Origin: Callorhinchus milii
Lineage: Eukaryota
Direction: 5' to 3'
DNA length: 64,000 nucleotides
NCBI RefSeq assembly: GCF_018977255.1
Contig: NW_024704742.1
Span: 5,024,001-5,088,000, forward strand
Both the position numbers and the translations under genes were made by a program. Below, one piece after another: positions 7,521 through 46,100 of this stretch (within the stretch, counting starts at the first letter, position 1; every line of letters begins with the position of its first letter). The notes below the pieces were generated by a model. That model did no database searches. It was not told where the DNA came from and saw nothing but the letters and a program-made list of their open reading frames with translations.

Positions 7521-9062
7521 CCTGTCTCCCTCAGTAATGCTGCAGTATACATTATTTCTCACCAGTGGCACACATCTATCCGCACCAAAATGTAGTATGA
7601 AGTACCGATCCCATTTCAAATCGCCAGCACGACACCAACTCCAAGACTTCAGAACACTTTTCTTTCGTTCACAGTAGCCCCAGTTGGGGCAATTCTGGTT
7701 GCTGGGAAGCCTAACTTTTATTTACATTTTTCCGCACTATAATCTGAACTGTCAGGACTATATTCTGAACTGTCAACTCAATTTTGATTGCACTAGTCAC
7801 TGGCAGCAACTTTCCAGTACGTCACTTATTTGACTATTCCACGTGTGCGAAACTTGAATGTTGTCATTTGACTACTGCAAGTCAGGGATGACAATGCCAA
7901 GCCAGGATTATTAAGGTCTTGAAACGTCCTCCCGACATGAAATGTATATAAACGTAACACAATATAAATGCTAAAATATATTACACTCTATATGAACGTA
8001 AATTTGTATTGCATTCTACGTGTGAAACTTGAATATTGAGCAGATAGTTTGAGCATCAAATTTTGCTCTAAAGGTCCCTTCAATTTTTCCTTTCTCTGCG
8101 TCTGATTTTGAAAATTTCCAGTAATCATAAATGCAGAGGTATCTTCAGCCAATATTCCATTGTCATACAATAACTACTACTGATTTTTGGAGACGTTGTT
8201 GGTGGCACATCGCTTGTTTGAGAAAGCCTCAAAAGGGAATCTAAGCAGAGATTATCTCCAGTAATTGTACATCGCTTACCTCACACCTATCCCGGGAAAT
8301 ACATTACAGCAAACCAGATTAAGTAGTATCAGTTAGCACCATTCATTTAATATGATTTGTGCAAAGTATGAGTTATGTCAAACTTGAATAAAATATAAAC
8401 TCTTCAACGGGACTTGGGACAGATATACAACTTAGGCAATTATACGATTGATACAGATCAGACTTGTGTGAGTTTTACTGTACATTGTTCAGTTGTTTTA
8501 ATTGAGGAATCCCAATGGAAATTGGGGCAGATTGGACCCGTACTACAAAATCATCACAGCCAAAGTTCAATCCTGCCCTCACCATCTCTCCCTCCATCAC
8601 CCCATCATCCATACAAGCACATGCTGACTCCAGACCAGACACTGCCCCACCCCTCCTTCCAACCTGACATTGAGAATAACGTAATTTTCTCGCTGCCTTC
8701 CATGTTCCAATTAATTAATGCAGCACAAGATTGTCCTCGTCTGCGTGGCCAACCGGTGCATTTACTCACTCAGCTATTGCGGCTTTATTTTCTCAGCCTC
8801 CCCATCCTGACACAGCATTTTCTATTGATCCTTCCATCAGCGCTTTTCAAGTCCACAGAATAAGGGCATCAGTGAAAGTGGTTGGTAAATCATTTTCGAC
8901 ACGCAGCATCGTACACAAAATGATTAACCCTTTCGGATGCTAACTTATCTACCGTGGAAACGATCAATTCGCACATGTAACCCACCCACGCAAACACACA
9001 CACACATATACACACATATATACACACGCACAGCAACGCGTGCAGGTGGGGAAAAAAAACAT

Positions 9063-9170
9063 TTCGCCCGCAAAACACACAGTCGATTCACTTTACAGTA
9101 TATTCCGTGAAGCGCTTTGCGACGTCTCGAAGACGTGACACGTCGCTGTTATCAGACGCTAGGATTATTA
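9063..9170 (+). mobile_element. SINE 3' fragment
   Basis: TTCGCCC...TTCACTTTACAGTATATTCCGTGAAGCGCTTTG...GGATTATTAT. Confidence 0.85.
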
Positions 9171-9849
9171 TCACAAAATTGCTTTCCATCCATTTGCAAC
9201 GTAAAAAGGAACGTTCACGGTCAGTCTACGTGCAATCCACACGGCAGCAGCATCCCGAGTGATGTGCTCAAGTCCTTCAAGACAACAACAACAACACCAC
9301 CGCCTCGCATTATCTATCTTATAAGCTACCTTCGGAGTGCGGTAGGATCCTGGAGTGCTTTACCCTTTGGCGGACGGAGCCTGACACTGAGCCACGGGGG
9401 GGGGGTTAAATCAATGAATTAGCAACCCAACAAGCGCTCATCATCAGAAAAAGCCGCACCCGGATCAAAACGTGTCCGCATACCAAATCCCCGCCAACCT
9501 AACCGGGTCGGTGTGACCGAAACGAAACAGAATAGCTCGCGGAGGACCCTGTGACTCATTTCTTTTTTTTTAAAAAAAATTAACAATATTTCTCTCTCAC
9601 CCTCTCTCCCTCTCTCTCTCAATGCCAATGAACCAAATGACCCATCCCTTTGCCAGTCAGTCACACTGTGTGGTGGTCTCACCCCCACCCCCACCACTAC
9701 CACCACCCACACACACACACACACACACTCAGCTCAGGAAGTTTGTGAGAATAAGAAGTGGAAAGAAAGAGGAGAGAGAGAGAGAGAGTCCTACCAGCAG
9801 CAGTCAGGGGCTCCTTGGGCTGTGAAATGGACTGTGGACTCCTAGGCCA

Positions 9850-10221
9850 GGGAGGGGGAGAGAGGGAGGGGGGGGAGGAGGGGGAGAGAGGGGGAGGGAG
9901 GGAGAGGGGGGGAGAGAGGGGGAGGGGAGAGGGGGAGGAGGGAGGGAGGGGAGAGGGGGGAGGGGGGAGAGAGGGGGAGGGAGGGGGGGGAGGGGGGGAG
10001 AGAGGGGGGAGAGGGGGAGAGAGGGGGGGAGGGGGAAGAGGGGGAGAGAGGGGGGGGAGGGGGGAGAGAGGGGGGGGAGGGGGAGAGAGGGGGGGAGAGA
10101 GGGGGGAGGGAGAGAGGGGGGAGGGGGGAGAGAGGGGGGGAGGGGGGAGAGAGGGGGAGGGAGGGGGGGAGAGAGAGAGGGAGGGAGAGAGGGGGGGAGT
10201 AGAGGGGGGAGGGAGAGGGAG
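9850..10221. repeat. ~370-bp polypurine (G/A) tract
   Basis: Almost only G and A, with repeated G4-G8 runs. Confidence 0.95.
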
Positions 10222-10325
10222 GTTTGTCTCCTTTACAGGGTGTTTCACACCGACTGCAGACACCAGTCCAGCAACAGCCACAGGACTCCGGGTCTCCTCT
10301 CGGCCACTTCTCCACTGGGGCTCTC

Positions 10326-10685
10326 ACACACACACACACACACAGAGTGAGGGAGAGAGAGAGAGAGAGACCCGGACAGCGTCAGGAAATAGAGAGAGTG
10401 TATGTGAGAGCGACAATTAAAGACAGTGACAGTGTCAGAACTGCAGAGTGTGTCACACACAGTGAGACACAGAGAGACACAGAGAGACACAGAGACACAC
10501 ACAGAGAGACAGAGACACACAGAGAGACACACAGAGAGACACAGAGAGAGACACAGAGAGAGACACACACACACACAGAGACAGAGACAGGAAGAGGGAG
10601 AGAAGGTGTCAGATATGAACCAGACGGCAGCAGAGAAACCAGAGAGACAGAGAGAGAGTCAGAGACACACACACACACACACACA
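10326..10685. repeat. Compound (AC)n/(GA)n/(GAGACACA)n microsatellites
   Basis: Directly visible, interspersed with short unique spacers. Confidence 0.9.
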
Positions 10686-10920
10686 GTGCGGTGGAGCCCC
10701 GGTGGACAGGGAGTGAAGGGGCCGCAGGATGTGCAGTATGGCCGACCCTGTGTGGGTGTGTGTCGGGTCGGGCCGCCGGGGGGGGGGCTGGGGGTGGCCG
10801 CCGGGGGGGCCGGGGGCCGGGGGGGGGAGGCTCGGGGTCGGGGCCGCTGTCTCTCGGCCTCTCGAGGCCCCGCGCCGATCGTTTGTTTTCAAACCGGCGG
10901 CCGGTGCGGCGCTGCGGGTC

Positions 10921-11180
10921 GGGGGGGCGGGGCTGAGGGCAGGGGGCGGGGCTGAGGGCAGGGGGGCGGGGCTGAGGGCAGGGGGGGGGCTGAGGGCAGG
11001 GGGGCGGGGCTGAGGGCGGGGGGGGCGGGGCTGAGGGCAGGGGGCGGGGCTGAGGGCAGGGGGGGGGCTGAGGGCAGGGGGGGGGGGCTGAGGGCAGGGG
11101 GGGGGCGGGGCTGAGGGCAGGGTGGGGGCGGGGAGGGGCGGGCTGAGGGCAGGGTGGGGGGCGGGGCTGAGGGTAGGGGG
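10921..11180 (+). repeat. G-rich minisatellite, ~12 units of GGGG(C)GGGGCTGAGGGCA
   Basis: CTGAGGG recurs about every 18-22 bp; an inverted unit follows at ~11190-11209. Confidence 0.9.
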
Positions 11181-11399
11181 CGGTGCCTCTGCCCTGAGCC
11201 CCGCCCCCTCCATGACCCATGCAGTGAGGTGTGGTCTGAGCCAACAACAACAACAACAACAGCAACTTGCATGTGTACAGCCCCCCTGCACTGGGGGGGG
11301 GGGGAGGGGGAGAGAGAGCGCCTCCCCCCCCCCGAGAAACAGCTGACCTCACGTGAGCGTCCCGCCCCAGCCTCCCCCTCCCCCTCCGGGTGGGGGTCA

Positions 11400-11572
11400 A
11401 AAATAATAATAATAAAAAAAATAATAATAATAATAAAAATAACAATCCGTGACCGTTTGCAGGACGTCGTTGGGCGTAATCGGCTGCCGCCTCCGGCCCA
11501 CGAAAATACGCAGTCGCTCCTGCGCTTCACGACGTATCCTGCGAAGCGCTTCGGGACGTCCCGGAGACGCCC
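11400..11572 (+). mobile_element. GC-shifted SINE 3' fragment
   Basis: AATCCGTGACCGTTTGCAGGACG...CGGCTGCCGC...GCGAAGCGCTTCGGGACGTC aligns to the SINE consensus with many T-to-C and A-to-G changes. Confidence 0.75.
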
Positions 11573-12327
11573 AACGCCCAACCCCCGGGGGGTCCGAACG
11601 CCTCCGGGCACTGTAAAAGCGGCTGTCGGATTCCCTCGTCCCCACCCTGAAGGGTCCGTGGAGACGAGTGGTTTTCCTTCTACTGACTGGAAATCGATGC
11701 CATTTCGGTTCCAATCGATTCAGTGACTATATATATATATATAAAATATATAATAATCCTCGCATTTGATACAGCGCTTTTCACGTCTTCTTGACGTTTC
11801 AAAGCGCTTCACAGAACAGACTGTAAAGTGAATTGACCGTATATTTGTGGGCGAAACGCGGCAGCCAATTGCGCACAGCAATGTCCCACAGACAGTCGTG
11901 GGTTGAAAATGACCAATTTATTATTGTTTTTGGTTTTGGAGGGATTATTATTAGGCTCTGTGTGGAGTAAGGAAACTTGCCCAAGGTTTCGCCCTCTGCC
12001 TGGAATTGAACTCAGGTCTCTCACTTGCAAAGCGAGTGCTCTAACCACTGAGCTACAGGACTCCACAATATATCCCGCTTTGTAGGGACCTTATCACCTC
12101 CTTCTACAACCAGGGCCACGTGATCAATAGCACGTTTCCCTCTGTCACAAGTTAATGCATTTATTTAGTGAAAAGTCACCGTTATCCATACGACTGGATG
12201 CTGCGGCTTCAAGATAGTTATCCGCCCTTCAGAGTGTGATCGTGTTCTAAACGACTTGTGCCCATCTATTGTTTATCAATAAGATGACGAATTGATGATA
12301 CTGTAATCTACAATTTAACCTGATAAC
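11573..12327 (+). repeat. Local duplication copy A (paralog of 16641-17288)
   Basis: Shared unique strings, e.g. TACTGACTGGAAATC, TTTCCCTCTGTCACAAGTTAATG, GATGCTGCGGCTTCAAGATAGTTATCC, TGATGATACTGTAATCTACAATTTAACCTGATAAC. Confidence 0.92.
11752..12066 (-). mobile_element. Full-length tRNA-derived SINE (short subtype) with 7-bp TSD AATATAT
   Basis: Head GTGGAGTCCTGTAGCTCAGTGG (A box)...GAGTTCAATTCC (B box); L2-like tail; TSD at 11745-11751 and 12067-12073. Confidence 0.92.
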
Positions 12328-12354
12328 ACTGAGATCCCGCCACGTAAGCCATTA

Positions 12355-12460
12355 GAACTCACAAACATACGCAGTCAATTCACCTTACAGCGTATTCTGT
12401 GAAGCGCTTTGAGACCTCTCGAAGATGTGATAAGGCGCTATATCAAAAACAAGGATTTAT
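12355..12460 (+). mobile_element. SINE 3' tail
   Basis: CAGTCAATTCACCTTACAG...GTGAAGCGCTTTGAGAC...GGCGCTATATCAAA. Confidence 0.8.
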
Positions 12461-12702
12461 ATGTATTTTGATCACTGGATTGATCTAAAGTGAAATATCC
12501 TTCTCTCACCAGCAGTTACACATTTGCAAAGTGTGAAAGCACGCATGTTTATAAACAGCAAGTTAGGAGTAAACAGCGCAATCAATTCAGTTTTAATTGG
12601 CACTCGTAACATTTTGAATTCCACGGAGTTAGAGCTCCTCCTTGTGACACAAGGAATAAGTACTGGGAAGTTTCATTCACGTACGTTGGAATTTTGGAGC
12701 AG

Positions 12703-12912
12703 AAAACAACAAAATTACATTTGTATAGTGCCTTTCACGCCAGGAGCAGGTGCCAAGGCGCTGGACAGTCAGAGTTTCGGACCCGAGCTGGTGGGAGGGA
12801 GGTGGGCTGGGAGAGGGGGAATGAGGGTGATCAAAAGAACGGTCAAAGAGGAGGGTCTTGAGATGGGTCTTGAAGAAGGCGAGGGAAGGGGCGAGGCAGA
12901 GGGACTGCGGGA
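12703..12912 (-). mobile_element. L2 3' fragment
   Basis: SLAFFKTHLKTLLF motif plus L2 tail in reverse complement. Confidence 0.85.
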
Positions 12913-13014
12913 TGAACAACCGTTCCACCAATGCAGTGCTGCTCTAGAGTGTCAAACTAGACAAATTCAAAGTCTTAATTTGTGTGCAACCAAATAGGCA
13001 AGCTGACAATCTTG

Positions 13015-13140
13015 TGGATAAAGGGATATGGGGATAAGGCGGGTAGGTGGAGTTAGAATAGATCAGCCATGATCTTATTGAATAGCGGGGCAGGCTAGAG
13101 GGCCGAATGGCCTACTCCTGCTCCTAATTCTTATGTTTTT
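13015..13140 (+). mobile_element. CR1-type LINE 3' end
   Basis: GATCAGCCATGATCTTATTGAAT...GGCCGAATGGCCTACTCCTGCTCCTAATTCTTATG, the tail type common in shark CR1 elements (recalled). Confidence 0.75.
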
Positions 13141-13207
13141 ATGACACATAATTGTAAACACTTCAATCAAATTACATCTCATGGAGTATACATCCTTTAG
13201 AGGTACA

Positions 13208-13295
13208 TTATAATAATAATCCTTGCATTGGATATAGCACCTTATCGCTTCTTCAAGACGTCTCAAAGTGCTTCACAGAATATACAGTAAAGTGA
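13208..13295 (-). mobile_element. SINE 3' tail
   Basis: AATAATCCTTGCATT...CTCAAAGTGCTTCACAGAATATACAGTAAAGTGA. Confidence 0.8.
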
Positions 13296-14379
13296 TGTTG
13301 CACACCAGGTTTCCAGCGATGCTCGGACCTGACATCCCAATTCCAACAAACTCACGCTCCTGCACACAACTTGTCACTCTGAGTGGCTTTCTTAGCAACT
13401 GAGCATAAGTGCATCAGGTAATATTTCCCCCACAGTGTGATCAGTCTTGCAAAAGTAAGTGTTGCACAATACCTTTAATAGAGTGTGTACTGTTTAAGTT
13501 GGGTATCGAGAACAAGAGAGTGGCAGAGAGAGGCTGATGGAAAGAGATGGCACAGTGCGGTACTGCACTTCATATACCTGTTGGAACTTTTTTTTTAGTT
13601 AGCGACTGTTACTAATTTGTAATTTGTGTGATATCCAATTATTCACACTGGTTGTCTGTAATGGGGTCAGTTTTCCAATTAGGGCAGATAATTGACTCTC
13701 TACTGTAAATAGATATATGGTCTGTTGAGGATTTGTGACCATATAAATGACAGGCCAAGCAAGGCAACCGGTCATGAGTGAATAATGTAGAGCAAATAAT
13801 AAACAAACAGCAGATTGGTGGGAGCAGATAAGAGTCCAAGTTAGAGTGGATCATTCATGGTCTGTAAAAGAAAAATGGTTCATTGTTATCAAATGGCCTT
13901 TTCTTGTTGGTGCTTTATTCTTTGTGTTCATTTTTCCAGGTCAAATGACATATGAAAGGCAGACATTCAACTGAGTAAAAGAACAGTATTTTTGTTTTGA
14001 ACGATCGATACTGCACTCTACCAGGAGAGTAAAATGGTCTCCGTCAAGCTGTCAATTAACTGTATTTCAGGAACCTCACTGACAGATCAATTGGAAAATA
14101 TCTCTGGAATTGTCTGCACTGTAGGTAGGCAATAAAAGCAGTGAGCGGCAATAGAATGCATGGTAGGTGAGGCGATGTGAAGAATCAATCTGTTTTAATG
14201 GCTAAATCCCCCTATTATTATTATTATTATTAATGATTTCTTTAAAAAGAATCGTAGAAATATTTAAATAGACGATCTGTGTACAACAATTTTCGGATGC
14301 ATGTTGTAAGAAAAGCTTTTTATCGTTGAGCATTTGTTATCAATCTGCAGCAAAAAAACACCCTTTTAGCTATCAAACT

Positions 14380-15085
14380 AACCAGTCAGATTTTGAGGGT
14401 ATCCGTTCAACTTCCACTCCCTCCCCATCTCCCTCCCTCCACATCTTCGAACCCGTCTCCCCCTCCTCTCTTGACACCACCATATCCAACATGAAACACA
14501 CCACCTGTTCCCTTGACCCCAGACCCACCCCTCTCCTTACCTCCCAGCTCCACCTCCTCGCCCCTCTACTCTCCGACACCATCAATCTCTCCCTCTAATC
14601 GGGCACCGTTTCGAATCCCCTAAAAACAGCTATAATCACCCACGTCCTGAAAAAACCTTCCCTGGACCCACCCCTGCTTTTTAACTGCCAGCCCATCTCC
14701 AACCTCCCCTTTCTTTCCAAGGTCCTTGAAAGAGTCGTTGTTTCCCAGCTTCGCTCCTACCACTCCCTTAATGAGCCCCTCCACTCGGGTGTTTGCACTG
14801 CTCACAGCATGGAAACTGCTCTGGTCAAGGTCACAAATGACATCCTGTCCATCTGTAACCAGGGCCTCCTCTTCCCTCCTCATCCTCTTTGCTGCCTTCG
14901 ATACCATGGACCACTCTATCCTCCTCCACCGCCTCTCCTCTCACCTCAATCTTCAAGGTTCTGTCCTTGAACAGTTTAGGTCTTATCTCTCAGCCCCGTC
15001 TCCAATTTGTCTCCGCCAACAGTGTCTCTTCCAGCTCCCGCACAATCTCATGCCGTGTTCCTCAAGGCTCTGTCTTCAGTTCTCT
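14380..15085 (+). mobile_element. L2 ORF2 reverse-transcriptase fragment (frameshifted)
   Basis: RT motifs in shifting frames: TTCSLDP, PISNLPFLSKVLERVV, HSMETALVKVTNDIL, AAFDTMDHSILL, VPQGSV. Confidence 0.9.
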
Positions 15086-15089
15086 CCAA

Positions 15090-15225
15090 TAGAAGAGGGA
15101 GTGAACAGGTCGATATGGGGTTAGCAGTTCACAGAGGTAGGGAGGAGCAAGGCCATGGGGGGCTTTGAAGGCGAGGACGAGGATTTTGGACCCCATCCTC
15201 TAGGGGATGGGGAGCCAGGCGAGCA
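15090..15225 (-). mobile_element. L2 ORF2 C-terminal fragment, opposite orientation
   Basis: Reverse complement gives KILVLAFKAPHGLAPPYL. Confidence 0.8.
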
Positions 15226-16075
15226 TAGCATCAGAATTGTAATTAGCAGTTTTAAACACCTGGATGCCTTTCTTTACCCAGAGCGTCTTAGATATAAAAT
15301 GAATCAGAAAAATAGGTTATCCATTAGATGATGATAACTGATGCTTTTTGTTTTCAAATGTATTTTTCACCCTTTCTCCCTTCACCAAACCAAAATGTTG
15401 GTGCCTCTATCCTTTGGGGCAATGTACCTTGAGTTACCTGTAAGGAGACAAACATGAAGAGGATAGAGGGTATCATTTCCCAACACATTACTGCCAATTC
15501 TCCCTGTACCAGCTTTCCTGGTTGAACGGATGAAAATTGCTATTTAAGGGGATGTGGCAATGCAAACTTCGACTCTGCGTTGTATTTGCACAATGATCCA
15601 TATTGCAGAGTTCCAGTTGTGTAGCAGTTATTCTGCTCATAGGCATGTCTTCTCTATAGTAATCACAAAAGATTGTATAATATAGGCTTCCAAAAGCTCT
15701 GACTTTTCTTTTTGTTCCACTCTTTGTTTAACTCTCCTTTTCTCTTGCTCTCTGATCTGCTCTGTTTTGTTCTGAACCTCTGTGTCTGTTCTCTGTTTTA
15801 ACTCACTGGTCTCAATCCCCATTTTACTCTGTTTTGAATTAAACAAAGAATTAAACAGAGAACGAAACAGAGAATAAAACGGAATGAAATAGAGAATGAG
15901 ACAGAGTGAAAAATCCTGAAGCGTTAGAATGCACATCAAAATTCACATCTTTGTTTTACTCTCTGTTTCGCTTACTGTTTTGCCTTTTTTTTTTTGCAAT
16001 CTTCCCAAATAAGAAAGCGAAACGAACATAGCATTTAGTTGTCCCGTCCCTTTGTGTTGAAAATCTGCATTTTGA

Positions 16076-16440
16076 AGCTTCGTGGTTAGAGCACTTGTCA
16101 TCGCAAGCGAGAGGACCTGGGTTTGATTTCCGGGCAGGGCGAAACCTTGGGCAGGTTTCCTTACTCTACACCGTCCCTGTTTACACAGCAGTAAGTAGGA
16201 ACCTGGTTGTTAGTCGATTGGCGGATCGCTTTTCTGTGAGTAATAACCCTTCAAAAAATAACAATAATAATTTGGTCACTCAATCCACGACTGTTTGTGG
16301 GACGCTGCTGTGCGCAATTGGCTGCCGGGTTTCGCCCATAAAACATACAGTCAATTCACTTTACAGTATATTCTGTGAAGCGCTTTGAGACGTCTCGAAG
16401 ACGTGATGAGGCGCTATATCAAATGCAAGGATTATTGTTG
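16076..16440 (+). mobile_element. Near full-length SINE (long subtype)
   Basis: tRNA-like head, internal CCTGTTTACACAGCAGTAAGTAGGAACCTGG segment, Deu-like TTGTGGGACGCTGCTGTGCGCAATTGGCTGCC and L2-like tail. Confidence 0.9.
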
Positions 16441-16640
16441 TAAGCTAAATTTGCAGTATCGGACGAGGTGCAATTTTGTAACCTTTTTGGTTATCCAACA
16501 AAATAATCATCGATATAACAAAATAGCACAGATTTATGCCATAAATCAAGAAATATTCAATCAAGGAACATTTATTTTGTTGGCTAACCAAAAAGGTTGC
16601 TTAGCCTATTCACACTCACTAACTGGGCTCACATATGAAG

Positions 16641-17288
16641 AATGCCCAATCCAGAGTTCAAATACCTACGGGAATTTTAAAGTGGTTATTGGATTCCCTC
16701 ATCCCACAATGAAGGGTCTGTGAATACGAATGATTTTCATTGTACTGACTGGAAATCAATGCCATTATCAGTCTCGTTATCATGAAATATTTTGGTTCCA
16801 ATCGATTCCGTGACCATATATCCAGCTTTATAGAGACCTTATTACCTCCTTCCACAACTAGGCACACAGGATCAATAGCACATTTCCCTCTGTCACAAGT
16901 TAATGAATTTATTTAGTGAAAAGTCACTGCTATCCATATTACTAATAATAATCCCTCCAAAAAAAAAACAATAATAAATTGGTCATTTTCAATCTACGAC
17001 TGTTTGTGGGACATTGCTGTGTGCAATTGGCTGCCGCGTTCGCCCACAAGTATACAGTCAATTCACTTTACAGTGTGATCTGTGAAGCGCTTTGGGACGT
17101 CCTCCCGACGTGAAAAGCGCTATATCAAATGCAAGGATTATTATTATTATATTACTAGATGCTGCGGCTTCAAGATAGTTATCCACCTTTTGGAGTGTGA
17201 TTGTGTTCTAAACAACTTGTGTTCATCTATTGTTTATCAATAAGATGATGAACTGATGATACTGTAATCTACAATTTAACCTGATAAC
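16641..17288 (+). repeat. Local duplication copy B (paralog of 11573-12327)
   Basis: Same strings in the same order and orientation ~5 kb downstream. Confidence 0.92.
16945..17148 (+). mobile_element. 5'-truncated SINE with 9-bp TSD ATATTACTA
   Basis: TSD at 16936-16944 and 17149-17157; the empty site is visible in duplication copy A. Confidence 0.9.
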
Positions 17289-17489
17289 GCTTATGTAATC
17301 CATTATAACTCCAGATTCTATGGCATAAAGGACTAATGAAATGCAACATCACCACAGAGCTAAGAAAAGCAATCTGAAAGAAACGTTTACTCATTGGGGT
17401 TCGTTAGGTGCTGTTTACTAAAATAGTAATTATTCTGTTCCAAGATTTTTAAAAATATTTTTTCTGATTTTTTAAAGTATTCATCTCTA

Positions 17490-17735
17490 AATTTGTTCAG
17501 TTGGACGCACTCTCCCCTCTGGATTAGAAGGTTCTGGGCTCAAATCCTACATCTGGCGGCAAACGAGAACATTTCCTTTGGCATCCTGGCCAACAATCCT
17601 CCAGATAAATCAATCATTCATCTCATCGCTGTTTGCGTTACCTTGCTGTACACAAATTGGCTGGCATGCTTCCCTGCAAATATACAGGCACTATACCCAA
17701 CAGCAATTAACTGCGAAGCACTTTAAGACATTTTA
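17490..17735 (+). mobile_element. Internally deleted old DeuSINE
   Basis: Degenerate tRNA head then TCCTGGCCAACAAT...CTTGCTGTACACAAATTGGCTG. Confidence 0.55.
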
Positions 17736-18640: not shown

Positions 18641-19327
18641 TTCCCAAACTATCATACATGACATGATACTAGCCTCAATAATTATTTATTATTGGGATTA
18701 ATAATATTATCATTGCATAATAATGGTTTGCTTGGCATTTGTTGGCTCGGAGGTTTATTTGGGAAAATAGAAGGCAGTTAATCTGACAGGACTAAACAGG
18801 AACCCAACCCATCTCTCATCAGCCCCTTCTACTGACAAATACAGTAGCCCTATGTTTACTCGTGCAGTTGCATATTTCTATCACTAGAGAGAGAAAGTGT
18901 GCTGTGCGATGTTGGTGCTGTGCTATACAGTGCACTATCCAAATAGCAGCTGTGATAGAATGGTCTTGCGCAGATGAAGTCTCTCTCCCTCCACACCACA
19001 CGCCCACCCCCTCCAAAAAAAAATGCCCAGCTAATCTGGATAAAGCACAGCTGTTGCTGGAAGTCTTTTGAATTCCTTTTGCCACTTCTTTTCCCAGACT
19101 GATCCTGAGAGGATCGCACAGGGAGGTAAGTGCCCGTGTTCCCAGACAGAACGAGGAAGCAACACTCACTCGTTTGTGGAGCACAGCAGCAGTTTCTGGA
19201 CTTCAGCCCAAACGATAGGATCTTTGTTGTGACACAGCTCTGCCCAAGATTGCAATGCTTTTATATAACCTTGAAGGGGAGAAGCGTATTTGTGTGTTGG
19301 ATCTGATCCACTATTTGGATAATTAAA

Positions 19328-41166: not shown

Positions 41167-41350
41167 TTATAGCGTTCGGACTATCACAGGGTAGAGTAGT
41201 GACAAATGTTCCGCTCCTTTAATTGGCAGCTTTCTCGTGGTGTAGAAGTGAATGACCTCAGGGACACTGTCAAACGGAGGGCTGTTCTGCCCCAAGATGT
41301 ATTTGTCTTTGGCTTTGGTCAATTTCATGTGCATGAAGCCTTGGCTGCTC
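41167..41350 (-). CDS. SHB: SHB last coding exon (C-terminal half of SH2 domain and stop)
   Basis: Acceptor ttgcttatttacag|G; AA+G reconstitutes Lys in frame with the previous exon. Encodes SSQGFMHMKLTKAKDKYILGQNSPPFDSVPEVIHFYTTRKLPIKGAEHLSLLYPVIVRTL-TAA; the ending LLYPVxVRTL fits SHB rather than SHD/SHE/SHF. Confidence 0.95.
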
Positions 41351-42329: not shown

Positions 42330-42526
42330 AAAAAAGATAATAATTGGGTCACGCAATCCACGACTGTCTGTGGGACGCCGCTGTGCGCAATTGTCTGCTG
42401 CGTTTCGCCCACAACATATACAGTCACTCCACTTGACAGTATGTTCTGTGAAGCGCTTTGAGGCGTCTTGAAGACGTGATAAGGTGCTCTATCAAATGCA
42501 AGGATTATTATTATTATTATTATTAT
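42330..42526 (+). mobile_element. 5'-truncated SINE
   Basis: AATCCACGACTGTCTGTGGGACG...GGATTATTATT. Confidence 0.9.
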
Positions 42527-42949
42527 ATTTATATTTGATACTTATGCAAAGCTATACTTCCAGACAGGCCCAGAATGTCATTTGCTGCACAGTCTCTGGT
42601 GGTCACAAGCGAAAGTGTGGAACTCCAGAACGCAAAGTAAAAGCTGTATTGGGGGCACTGGAATAAGCTTAGAAACTCTGTAGTTTAGGTAAGATAGTTG
42701 CTTCACACTGATTCCGAGTCGAAGTGCCATCCGTACACATTTCTGCTGATTGGGACGTCTGCTTGATAAGGACGGTAACTTTCCAGACGAGCAGAATTTC
42801 AACCCCAATGCTCAAAACTGACACCTCTGTGAGAAGCTCTCCCGTCAATGTCTTCTCTCTCCTGCAGGTCAGACCTCCTCACCCGACCCGATCGCTGTCT
42901 TAAGACTTGTTCTCTAAGGCGCAACTTAGGTGTCAGGTTCGACCCCCAG

Positions 42950-43140
42950 CTATCCTTCGGTACCCCACATCCTCACTCCAAAAGCTGCTGAAACCCTCGT
43001 CCACTCCTTCGTCACCTCAGCACCCGGCACCCCTCCTTATCTCTCCTCACACCACCACCACCTGCTCCCTCCGCTCGACTGGCTCCAGCCTCCTCCTTGT
43101 CCCCCAGACCCTCTGCCCCACCATTGGCGGCCGTGCTATG
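42950..43140 (+). mobile_element. Degenerate, internally deleted L2 fragment
   Basis: LTPKAAETLVHSFVTS and TIGGRA motifs. Confidence 0.65.
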
Positions 43141-46100
43141 CCCCGAAGCTGTTAACCTCGGACGCTGGATGAATTGGACAAAACATCTGGCCCTGATGTT
43201 TGTACACACTCGGGCTTTCTGCATCACAAGTGGCTCCAGGATGGAGATGGGAGAGTTCAAACTGCGATTGATTGACAGACAGACAGACAGACATTTCATC
43301 TTTATCTATACTCATCTGGGAGGACTCCTGTGGGGGAACTCAGTGGGAGGATTCGGCGTTTTAAAAATGTAAATTTTCTAGTTGCCGCAGCTTAGCTTTG
43401 TTTGTGTAGTGTATTTTGTTCCCACCGCTTAGGTGGATACATGGTCTGTGATGCACGATGCCACAGCACCACTTTGACTCACTGGCCACCAAGTGTAGCT
43501 GCAGCGAAAAACGCAAAACTGAAAATAACTCATGAACTATAGGAGATACCCGAAAACAAATATGGCCATGTCATTCCCAGATGCAAGACCTTTCCGATGA
43601 GGTATGCATCACGTCTCTACATCAATCAGGTATTGAGATCCTTCTTGAAGCAGACAAACATTGTCATTTTATTAGTATAGATATATAATACTGTGCTTCT
43701 AATTGCAACTAACCAATAGACCTACTAGTACTTGTTATTAATCCACTAACTTTCAATCAGTTTAATAAAGTACAGCCAAATCTGTAAATTATTTACTTTA
43801 CAGTGATTTTGTGGGGGTTAATTAACCAATCTGAAGACTACTTTTTGCAAACAAATTTCAGCTATAAAATTCCCCTCTTTGCTTTTGTTTTAATGATTAA
43901 TACACCAGCAGGTTGAGCGACAACCTCTGATCCTTCAATGGAAATACAACAAAGTGTTACATTATTCATACTGAATAACCAATTATTAGCAGTTTCTATG
44001 ATAGCCTTTAGCAGTTTAGTGCTTAACAGGAGACCTGAAACTAAGTTCCCTCTTCACAAGTTAAACAAAGACTTTCTTGAAAACGAATCTCCTCGTTTCC
44101 ACAGAGGAGTTGCTTTTAAACATGTGGCCCAACTCACGCAACATCTGCACGTTTCTAATTAAATTAAGCAGTTTCATGTATCACAGGAATACTCTGACTA
44201 AATCTATTGGCCTTCAGTTCCATTGCCAGAAGTCCCCCACGAAGCAACCAGTAAATTCTGTAATTGTGTAACCTCCTTTTCCCCATTTCTGAAAATCATA
44301 CAAAGAGTGTTTCACTGCAGAGAGTTACCGGTGATTACTGCTGCAGGTACATATACATCTGAGAGATTCTGTAATAATGTTCACAAGCAAGCTATAGAGG
44401 TTAAGTGCTTTGAGACGTCTCGAAGACGTGAAAGGCGCTATGTCAAATGCAAGGGTTATTATGATTAATAATTCTCAGCGGTTCTATAGTTAAGAACATA
44501 AAAATGTAAGAATTTGCAAGGTGAAAGAAGACTGAAGTCCATCTAGTTTGCCTTCCACCTTCCTGGCAGTCGCTTGACATGTCCTGTCCCAAACTATATC
44601 TATATAAAGCTATATAAATGTATAGTTCTGAGTGTTGGCACAGGACTGCTCTTGCACAGCCTCTGGAGAATGCTGGTGGAAAGTTTTTCCAGACCAAAAC
44701 TAACTGGAATAGCATGGTTGGTGTTTACTGAGGAGTATCAGTGTGTTACTGTACTGCAGACCAGGCTAATCCAAGGTGAATGTCAAATAGCTGTGATGAA
44801 ACATTCTTCAGAAAACTTTATAAGCCATCTCATATCAAAGTTTAATGGTAACCAAGTGCCCATTAGTGTGGAAGTCTTTAGGTCATAAATAAATCTTGCA
44901 ATTGATATAATGTCAAAACATCTCAAAGCACTTCACAGGTGATTCCTATCAAGAGTCGAAACTGTATTTATAAGCAAATTGAGTAGTCAATTTGAACACA
45001 GTGACTACCCACAAAATGAATGACCATTTTATAATACCAATATTAACCCTTGATTTTGATACTGTGCCTTATCATCTCTTTGATGCCTCTCAAAGCGCTT
45101 CACAGAATGGTATGTTTACGGTATTTAAAGTGAATTGGCAGACCTGTTTTTGAACGTTTACACTTTTTTGAAAAATAAAAAGTTAAGTCTTAAATTAATG
45201 TTTTTGAAATTCTGGAGGGTGTGTGTATGTGTATGTGTGTGGGGGGGGGGGGGGAGGTCATATTCCCTCGTTCCCCACCCGTAGGTTCTGGAGAATATGC
45301 CCTCTCCGCCACCACAACCCCCAAGCCTGCTTTCCAGCCAGGGACCGATGATACCAGTGTCCTGTGCTGATCCTGAGCTTGCTGACGCTCATTTCATTCG
45401 AGTCTCACTCAAAAACAATGGCCAATAAGGTGAGCTATTCTGGAAGATGGCTGGTGAGTGTAGAACCAACGGGAGCTCAGGCTCAAGTGTAGACATCTCA
45501 CCTGGATCTCGACTTTTTCCTTAGTATTTCAGAGGGTGCAAATTTTGGACATTTCCTAAATTCAAGATAATGTACAGTGTTGAACTGTAATACATATTTT
45601 TTTCTTCTCCCACAAGATCCATACTGGTCCTTGGTTGTCAATAAACAGATCTGTTTAGGTCAGAACTCACAAGACTCGGGGTCTATTGTACAGCTGGTTG
45701 CACGTGTACAGAGCTGCCCAGCACAGGGGAGACAGATTCATGAATGAAGGTACAAATATAATTCATGAGAATGTGAAAGGGAATCACAGTTCATTCCTGC
45801 TACATAAGGTACATTAGCAAATTTGCACTGGAGAGAGATTTGTGGATTCCGTGCAATGACTATGACAATGTCCGTGCTGAACACAGTTTGACATATTGGG
45901 AGTTGTGCTGTATGTATATAAATGTTTTTGCAGTAAATCCAAGCTTAAAAAGTGCCCTATATTCCAAGTGCACATTCTCTCTTCAAACAAACTTTAATAC
46001 ATTGCCTGAATACATTATTTGTCCATGAAACTATGATGCAGCTATTGAATTGGTCCAACACACATTAGTCTCTGTAGTTTCTGACTTCATATCAATGAGA

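Follow-up and report, generated by a model that had tools for sequence, protein, structure and literature searches.

Organization of the locus

The window analysed here is a 64-kb stretch (64,000 nucleotides) of the genome of the elephant shark, Callorhinchus milii. CpG islands were computed in 500-base windows with a GC content of at least 0.55 and a CpG observed/expected ratio of at least 0.65. Five islands were called, of which that at 10547–11787 is the longest; the ratio over the whole window is 0.51, and the remaining four calls appear to coincide with GC-rich LINE remnants. The features at and around the island, including the two copies (A and B) of a local duplication, are as follows.

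8900–9560: CpG-rich flank on the far side of a low-complexity block, observed/expected 1.21, with a SINE piece at 9062–9172
10547–11787: computed CpG island of 1241 bases, GC 0.65, observed/expected 0.67, 84 CpG
10906–11180: G-rich minisatellite, 19-base unit in 14 copies, holding most of the window's GC-box-like motifs
11404–11569, plus strand: fragment of an old tRNA-derived SINE, model positions 115–279, its 3' end cut where copy A begins
11573–11730, plus strand: copy A, proximal part, GC 0.58 and 13 CpG versus GC 0.38 and 5 CpG in copy B
11742–12066, minus strand: young full-length SINE, inserted into A after the duplication
12065–12361, plus strand: copy A, distal part, with a weaker skew, partly polarised via two related species
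12358–12462, plus strand: 3' piece of a SINE, model positions 212–313, starting where the A/B homology ends; probable sister piece of the 11404 fragment
16641–17311, plus strand: copy B, AT-rich and probably parental, interrupted by a SINE at 16942–17150

The island contains the compositionally shifted SINE fragment at 11404 and the proximal part of A, as well as the G-rich minisatellite; the window's 10 GC-box motif matches all fall in 10924–11199. The segment 11400–11730 holds 33 CpG in 330 bases, the window maximum being 34, so the shifted DNA now belongs to the island. Between 8600 and 11200, the GC skew turns from negative to strongly positive near 9750–9800 (up to 1.0 at 10000–10199), and long GA-, CA-, and G-rich arrays are present, a picture typical of a start-site or origin-like region.

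A comparison of 292 stop-free frames with Pfam revealed no coding exon near the island; it returned one real match, an SH2 domain at 59282–59677 on the minus strand, plus one sub-threshold chance match. A simple splice-site scan gave six candidates, none of them at the island, and its best plus-strand exon candidate is 28 bases long (19098–19125), with strong acceptor and donor signals. The SH2 domain appears to be C-terminal in a minus-strand adaptor gene whose last two exons lie at 59283–59402 and approximately 41180–41340, separated by an 18-kb intron. The last exon ends near 41180, 30 kb to the right of the island. Sequence matches of the domain are to generic SH2 only; the gene is possibly SHB-like. 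Synteny raises the possibility that the island marks the start of a minus-strand gene whose first exon is non-coding; TDRD7 and TMOD1 would be candidates.

A duplicated segment at the island edge

BLAST of 11201–12500 against the window identified a local duplication in two copies, A and B, spaced approximately 5 kb apart and aligned in the following blocks.

11601–11704 in A, 16665–16766 in B: 80% identity
11707–11734 in A, 16794–16821 in B
12065–12190 in A, 16813–16938 in B: 88% identity
12193–12330 in A, 17154–17291 in B: 91% identity

The homology stops at approximately 12361 in A and 17311 in B, and no resumption was found beyond 12462. Each copy has acquired its own later SINE (11742–12066 in A and 16942–17150 in B), and the alignment places a 25-base deletion in A. 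The first 26 bases of B match once in the window, at 16641–16666 (0.00 chance matches expected). Contigs from the same organism (X1) cover B at single-contig depth and carry its letters, indicating that B is not a dispersed repeat, and B has no informative open frame.

A unique AT-rich segment of about 480 bases at B would have been copied once, approximately 5 kb leftward, and have landed in an old SINE that borders the CpG island; copying from B to A, with template-switch repair as the putative route, is the history that we infer. Probably the simplest reading of the surroundings is that a templated insertion derived from B broke a single SINE in two, a reading that goes with a 5-base microhomology at the left junction of A. 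The 12358 piece lies on the same strand as the 11404 fragment; the two have about 68 model positions and two CpG doublets in common. A is flanked on either side by a same-strand piece of this SINE type, and the SINE and A are probably not independent controls for one another.

That microhomology was also the only feature in favor of a different origin of the 11404 SINE, as a duplicate of the SINE upstream of B (16073–16440). This idea was rejected: there is no homology upstream of either SINE, and the non-majority letters of the 11404 fragment are shared with the 12358 piece instead. The left junction of A (11577–11588) has also acquired a short tandem duplication of 7 bases and a palindrome made of a C-run and a G-run. 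Just upstream of B, at 16478–16602, lies a MITE-like element of about 125 bases whose terminal inverted repeats measure about 27 bases.

G/C skew between the two copies

An earlier note on this DNA had claimed that A and B differ almost entirely as G/C in A against A/T in B, non-CpG positions included, and that the bias weakens away from the island; the alignment bears out all of this. In the proximal part, 30 differences occur in 152 aligned columns. Twenty-six of them have G/C in A, two are reverse (one gain in B and one junction column), and two are within class, i.e., GC-conservative; outside CpG context, the ratio is 16 to 1. As the region was picked by eye, the binomial p values of 3 × 10−6 for all differences and 2.7 × 10−4 for non-CpG differences overstate the case, but the effect is nonetheless large: about one quarter of the A/T bases in the island-side copy are now G/C.

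Read from B to A, the proximal differences comprise A>G 10, T>C 9, A>C 5, and T>G 2, the last two types giving 7 transversions, and the strands are symmetrical (A>G 10 versus T>C 9, p = 1.0). Within-class changes occupy 2 of the 152 columns in the proximal part and 1 of the 266 in the distal part, both small counts. Equal strands, the presence of transversions, and the unraised within-class changes fit GC-biased gene conversion (gBGC) and do not fit editing, CpG decay alone, or general hypermutation. An artefact of assembly or sequencing, or RNA editing of a retroposed copy, is hardly credible here. Although none of the matches listed shows the A letters in another run, those of B are confirmed in X1 at the sites among the matches listed, four same-organism runs contain more than half of the sampled words from 8000–17500, and strand-symmetric transitions accompanied by transversions match neither A-to-I editing nor a known error mode.

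In the distal part (12065–12330, 266 columns), G/C in A outnumbers the reverse by 21 to 7 (p = 0.013), a count that includes three columns at insertion junctions; the non-CpG differences, 11 versus 6, are not significant alone (p = 0.33). Per 40 columns, the share of A/T sites of B that have G/C in A runs 11/25, 8/21, and 6/28, then 1–5 of 21–29, and this density declines with distance (Spearman rho −0.22, p = 2 × 10−4). The gain/loss ratio does not differ significantly between the proximal and distal parts (p = 0.14). Within A, gains that form a CpG are about twice as frequent as other gains (11/23 versus 15/68).

These counts bear on the proposal that CpG retention is the only process, i.e., that A and the 11404 SINE kept ancestral CpGs while B and the sibling SINEs lost theirs through methyl-cytosine decay. 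Ten of the 26 proximal differences are in CpG context, as such retention would have it; yet it is unable to yield the non-CpG ratio of 16 to 1 or the 7 transversions, and as the sole cause it is contradicted for A/B.

Direction of the change

Outgroup letters were taken from contigs of two related-species runs, X7 and X9, each with one contig on part of B; the listed differences are 40 of 369. A further relative, X16, has none on B among the matches listed. The X9 contig spans 16749–16946 of B with 23 differing letters, of which 16 are among the matches listed; the other 7 are about the number expected in the contig's 69 flanking bases at the observed density. An X9 contig with many single-letter differences also covers 13654–13818, a second orthologous non-repeat stretch from which a local background could be read.

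Between 16727 and 16910 there are 19 outgroup differences among the matches listed, 18 of which align to A. A and B agree against the relatives at 14 of these 18 listed sites, A agrees with the relatives at 3, and 1 is a three-way difference. The 14 shared sites indicate that the duplication postdates the split from those species. Ten sites in 16782–16910 of B have G/C in A and A/T in B, and 9 of them read as gains in A among the matches listed: 8 are without an outgroup difference among these matches, the relatives presumably being identical to B, and at 1 the relatives have another A/T letter in the same listed set. The tenth, 16882, is by the listed matches a CpG loss in B and thus an instance of the retention described above. 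Most of the G/C-in-A sites of the outgroup-covered stretch are non-CpG sites that read as gains among the matches listed, which again speaks against CpG retention as the whole explanation.

Only 2 outgroup differences among the matches listed are proximal, so the polarity of the proximal part is argued from rates. Decay confined to B, at the pooled reverse rate of 9/224 and at loss/gain ratios of 1 to 3, would produce 2.5–7.4 non-CpG losses among 61 sites; 16 are seen (p = 2 × 10−9 to 0.002). Once the proximal-only reverse rate is raised to its upper 95% bound, ratios of at least 2 leave decay of B compatible with the data (p = 0.18 and 0.83). The change between A and B is therefore read as mostly a gain in A, which the outgroup supports for the distal part and the rate argument for the proximal part. 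This agrees with the suggestion of the earlier note that more than CpG decay in B is involved, and the distal outgroup, among the matches listed, does not show the G/C-rich state of the pair to be ancestral. On this polarity, proximal A gained about 23 G/C on 91 A/T sites versus at most 9/224 in B, an approximately six-fold acceleration.

It is very unlikely that A instead represents an ancestral G/C-rich state and B a copy decaying toward A/T away from the island. The scarcity of proximal outgroup differences among the matches listed and the survival of B decay under the most generous rate bound are in its favor. However, the relatives' contigs sit on B, one of them also on its upstream flank at 16459–16471, a flank that is absent from A; the distal sites polarised above point to gains in A; and decay should be uniform along B, whereas the skew tracks distance from the island in the coordinates of A.

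The SINE fragment and its sibling copies

A profile search of the window found 44 pieces of the SINE family, of which 30 with a score of at least 40 and reaching the 3' part were aligned; Rfam recognises only 5 tRNA-like SINE heads, those of full-length siblings. All counts use the core 11443–11569 only. A count over the full alignment (25 gains and 9 losses, non-CpG 10:9) was set aside on account of misalignment in the A-rich linker. A LINE-type tail at 11253 was also considered as a control and left out, being shifted by only a few bases compared to 15 other tails.

Compared with the majority of the young siblings, the 11404 core has G/C at 24 of 62 A/T sites and has lost 6 of 56 G/C sites; in the same count, 16 young siblings show 54 gains at 882 A/T sites and 66 losses at 768 G/C sites. 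Within-class changes number 2/118 in the 11404 copy versus 21/1650 in the siblings. When ambiguous columns and shared letters are dropped, the 11404 SINE retains 16 gains and 4 losses, the largest excess of the 30 copies; the next-largest excess is 4 and the other copies stand at 76 to 71 (p = 0.018). The claim that this SINE has gained G/C relative to its siblings therefore stands as far as the overall shift is concerned, but the non-CpG gain is not cleanly polarised. With context set on the reference, non-CpG gains are 13/43 versus 47/627 in the siblings (p = 3 × 10−5), and the non-CpG gain:loss ratio is 10:4 versus 48:31 (p = 0.56). The strictest filter, with CpGs arising from 12 of the 16 gains, leaves 4:3 versus 55:60 at non-CpG sites (p = 0.71). 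The example quoted in the earlier note as evidence of gain fails, since it consists of TpG-to-CpG differences only, a class unable to separate gain from CpG decay.

As in A, gains that form CpGs are about twice as frequent as the others in the 11404 SINE (11/19 versus 13/43). Two CpG doublets are probably ancestral to an older subfamily, since they appear as TpG/CpA forms in other copies and are intact in the 12358 piece. That probable sister piece offers the best internal comparison: over 70 shared columns, the 11404 fragment gained 13 (6 CpG-restoring and 7 other) and lost 1, compared with 2 gained and 2 lost in the sister. Three other SINE copies lie within 2.5 kb (9062, 11748, and 12358) and together have 10 gains and 1 loss, versus 66:70 in 26 far copies (p = 0.009). 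At non-CpG sites, the four near copies have 9:4 versus 55:60 (p = 0.24). Among them, the piece at 9062–9172 is likewise shifted, with 6 gains and 0 losses (4:0 on a conservative count), whereas in the young SINE within A, 6 private gains stand against 5 losses (3:1 in the core), which amounts to no clear skew.

The strict 4:3 result is what CpG retention would leave behind, and elephant shark repeats have been described as hypermethylated in the tissue that one study sampled (PMC5437953). Retention has very probably contributed to the pattern; as the only cause for both A and the SINE, it is improbable.

A putative recombination hotspot at the island

The reading that best accommodates these observations, and which we consider probable, is gBGC at a stable, unmethylated 'default' hotspot combined with CpG retention. 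A and its neighbours would lie in a zone that fixes A/T-to-G/C changes about six times faster than B does; in the comparison of A with B, GC-keeping changes are not accelerated and G/C losses are almost absent. The acceleration would stem from gBGC at a recombination hotspot of long standing, coupled to the island in its presumed unmethylated state. Missing methylation would add to it, since CpGs both old and new would then persist; the roughly two-fold frequency of CpG-forming changes relative to other gains may reflect this. The outcome is visible in the composition: as the earlier note proposed, the island has extended into neighbouring DNA, by approximately 300–400 bases of repeat-derived and duplicated sequence, with the hotspot named there as its probable driver.

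The relation between acceleration and loss was estimated with the standard gBGC model, using equations given in PMC11161765. In this model, a six-fold acceleration requires a time-averaged B (the model parameter, not the copy) near 6, at which losses fall to less than 2% of neutral; such a near-absence of losses matches proximal A. So high an average over the whole age of the duplicate would favor a lasting hotspot over a short episode. The comparison of the 11404 fragment with its probable sister piece and that of near with far SINE copies also count in favor of this reading. Against the gBGC reading, the 11404 SINE has 4–6 G/C losses, above what a model B of about 6 predicts unless the SINE is older. 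The lack of a clear skew in the young SINE within A, the non-significant non-CpG skew of distal A, the 9:0 skew of a SINE 30 kb away (42330–42514), and the failure of the frame and splice-site scans to tie an exon to the island likewise weigh against it.

The main rival is a local mutation bias, in which an open, unmethylated, transcribed edge mutates A/T to G/C more often or is better repaired, with its CpGs protected. The SINE losses just mentioned and the two-fold frequency of CpG-forming gains in both A and the 11404 SINE are in line with it, and human start sites have been described (PMC13712754) as having a hypermutation peak and a composition shaped by mutation bias together with gBGC. 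Nevertheless, we regard this bias as unlikely to be the main cause: within-class changes are not raised in A or in the SINE, so general hypermutation is absent; better repair would cut losses, yet it cannot lift gains about six-fold; and the gains include transversions and fall equally on the two strands.

Selection favoring a regulatory flank rich in G/C and CpG beside the island is highly improbable. It would explain why CpG-forming changes are enriched and why the stretch now ranks near the top of the window in CpG density over 330 bases. However, dozens of scattered changes in two unrelated pieces, one repeat-derived and one duplicated, do not look like a selected element, and a later SINE insertion and the 25-base deletion interrupt the shifted pieces. 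An unsystematic look at them brought up no gain of a motif.

Comparison with known island hotspots

According to Joseph et al. 2024 (PMC11161765), default hotspots at hypomethylated CpG islands, read from gBGC, also occur in species that keep PRDM9, and they coexist with PRDM9 in most of the mammals studied there. On that account, the missing PRDM9 targeting from which the earlier note argued would not be required for an island hotspot at the present locus. The pattern found here resembles the one described in that study, namely, a non-CpG A/T-to-G/C excess at the island that fades over a few hundred bases, and CpG sites are excluded there for the same reason that proved necessary at this locus. 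The scale is different: that study treats thousands of mammalian loci with three-species alignments, double-strand break (DSB) maps, and sperm methylation, whereas the present case is a single locus known from sequence and polarised via a paralogue, repeat siblings, and a partial outgroup.

Dog CpG islands offer a further likeness. According to Berglund et al. (PMC4350167) and Qiu et al. 2024 (PMC11323403), G/C is gained near islands and start sites, CpG decay within islands is low, and island sequence has been gained. Those reports describe dogs as having no PRDM9, whereas the elephant shark is credited in PMC5519329 with a KRAB-SET PRDM9 without a recognisable SSXRD domain; that study calls the gene partial, with fingers that are not rapidly evolving, and reports no expression found. 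PMC8892340 counts the same gene as complete, and this disagreement in print about PRDM9 status (PMC5519329 versus PMC8892340) adds to the interest of the lineage. Comparable island hotspots are mentioned for passerines in a review (PMC13186367). By analogy, the locus may work like the PRDM9-independent island hotspots of mammals, dogs, and passerines, a class to which it is compared here rather than assigned. DNA flanking shark first exons is near the genome-average GC according to Qiu et al. (PMC11323403), and a shifted flank such as this one may therefore typify only some promoters.

Island gBGC is already well described in dogs, birds, and many mammals, and one extra locus is unsurprising; the value of this one is that of a natural experiment, the same sequence lying inside and outside the reach of an island. 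A literature search covering mostly open-access papers found none on fine-scale gBGC at islands in cartilaginous fish. It is conceivable, though we lean slightly against it, that chimaeras, and perhaps cartilaginous fish generally, have stable CpG-island hotspots with strong gBGC despite a KRAB-bearing PRDM9. If that were true, the very abundant young SINEs of chimaeras would report where hotspots lie and how strong they are, genome-wide and with no need for a map, and breaks at the present hotspot may also have given rise to the templated insertion behind A. Comparing SINEs with their siblings across all islands would reveal whether cartilaginous fish use default hotspots, a point relevant to the time at which PRDM9 took over the placement of hotspots in vertebrates. 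As a lesson of method from the present SINE, CpG-forming changes and older subfamily states should be removed first.

Elsewhere in the window, 30 kb away, a SINE at 42330–42514 has 9 private A/T-to-G/C gains and 0 losses and adjoins a GC-rich LINE remnant at 42666–43219. It is possibly a second, weaker G/C-gaining spot, and its 9:0 ratio indicates that a skew of moderate size is not confined to the island at 10547–11787.
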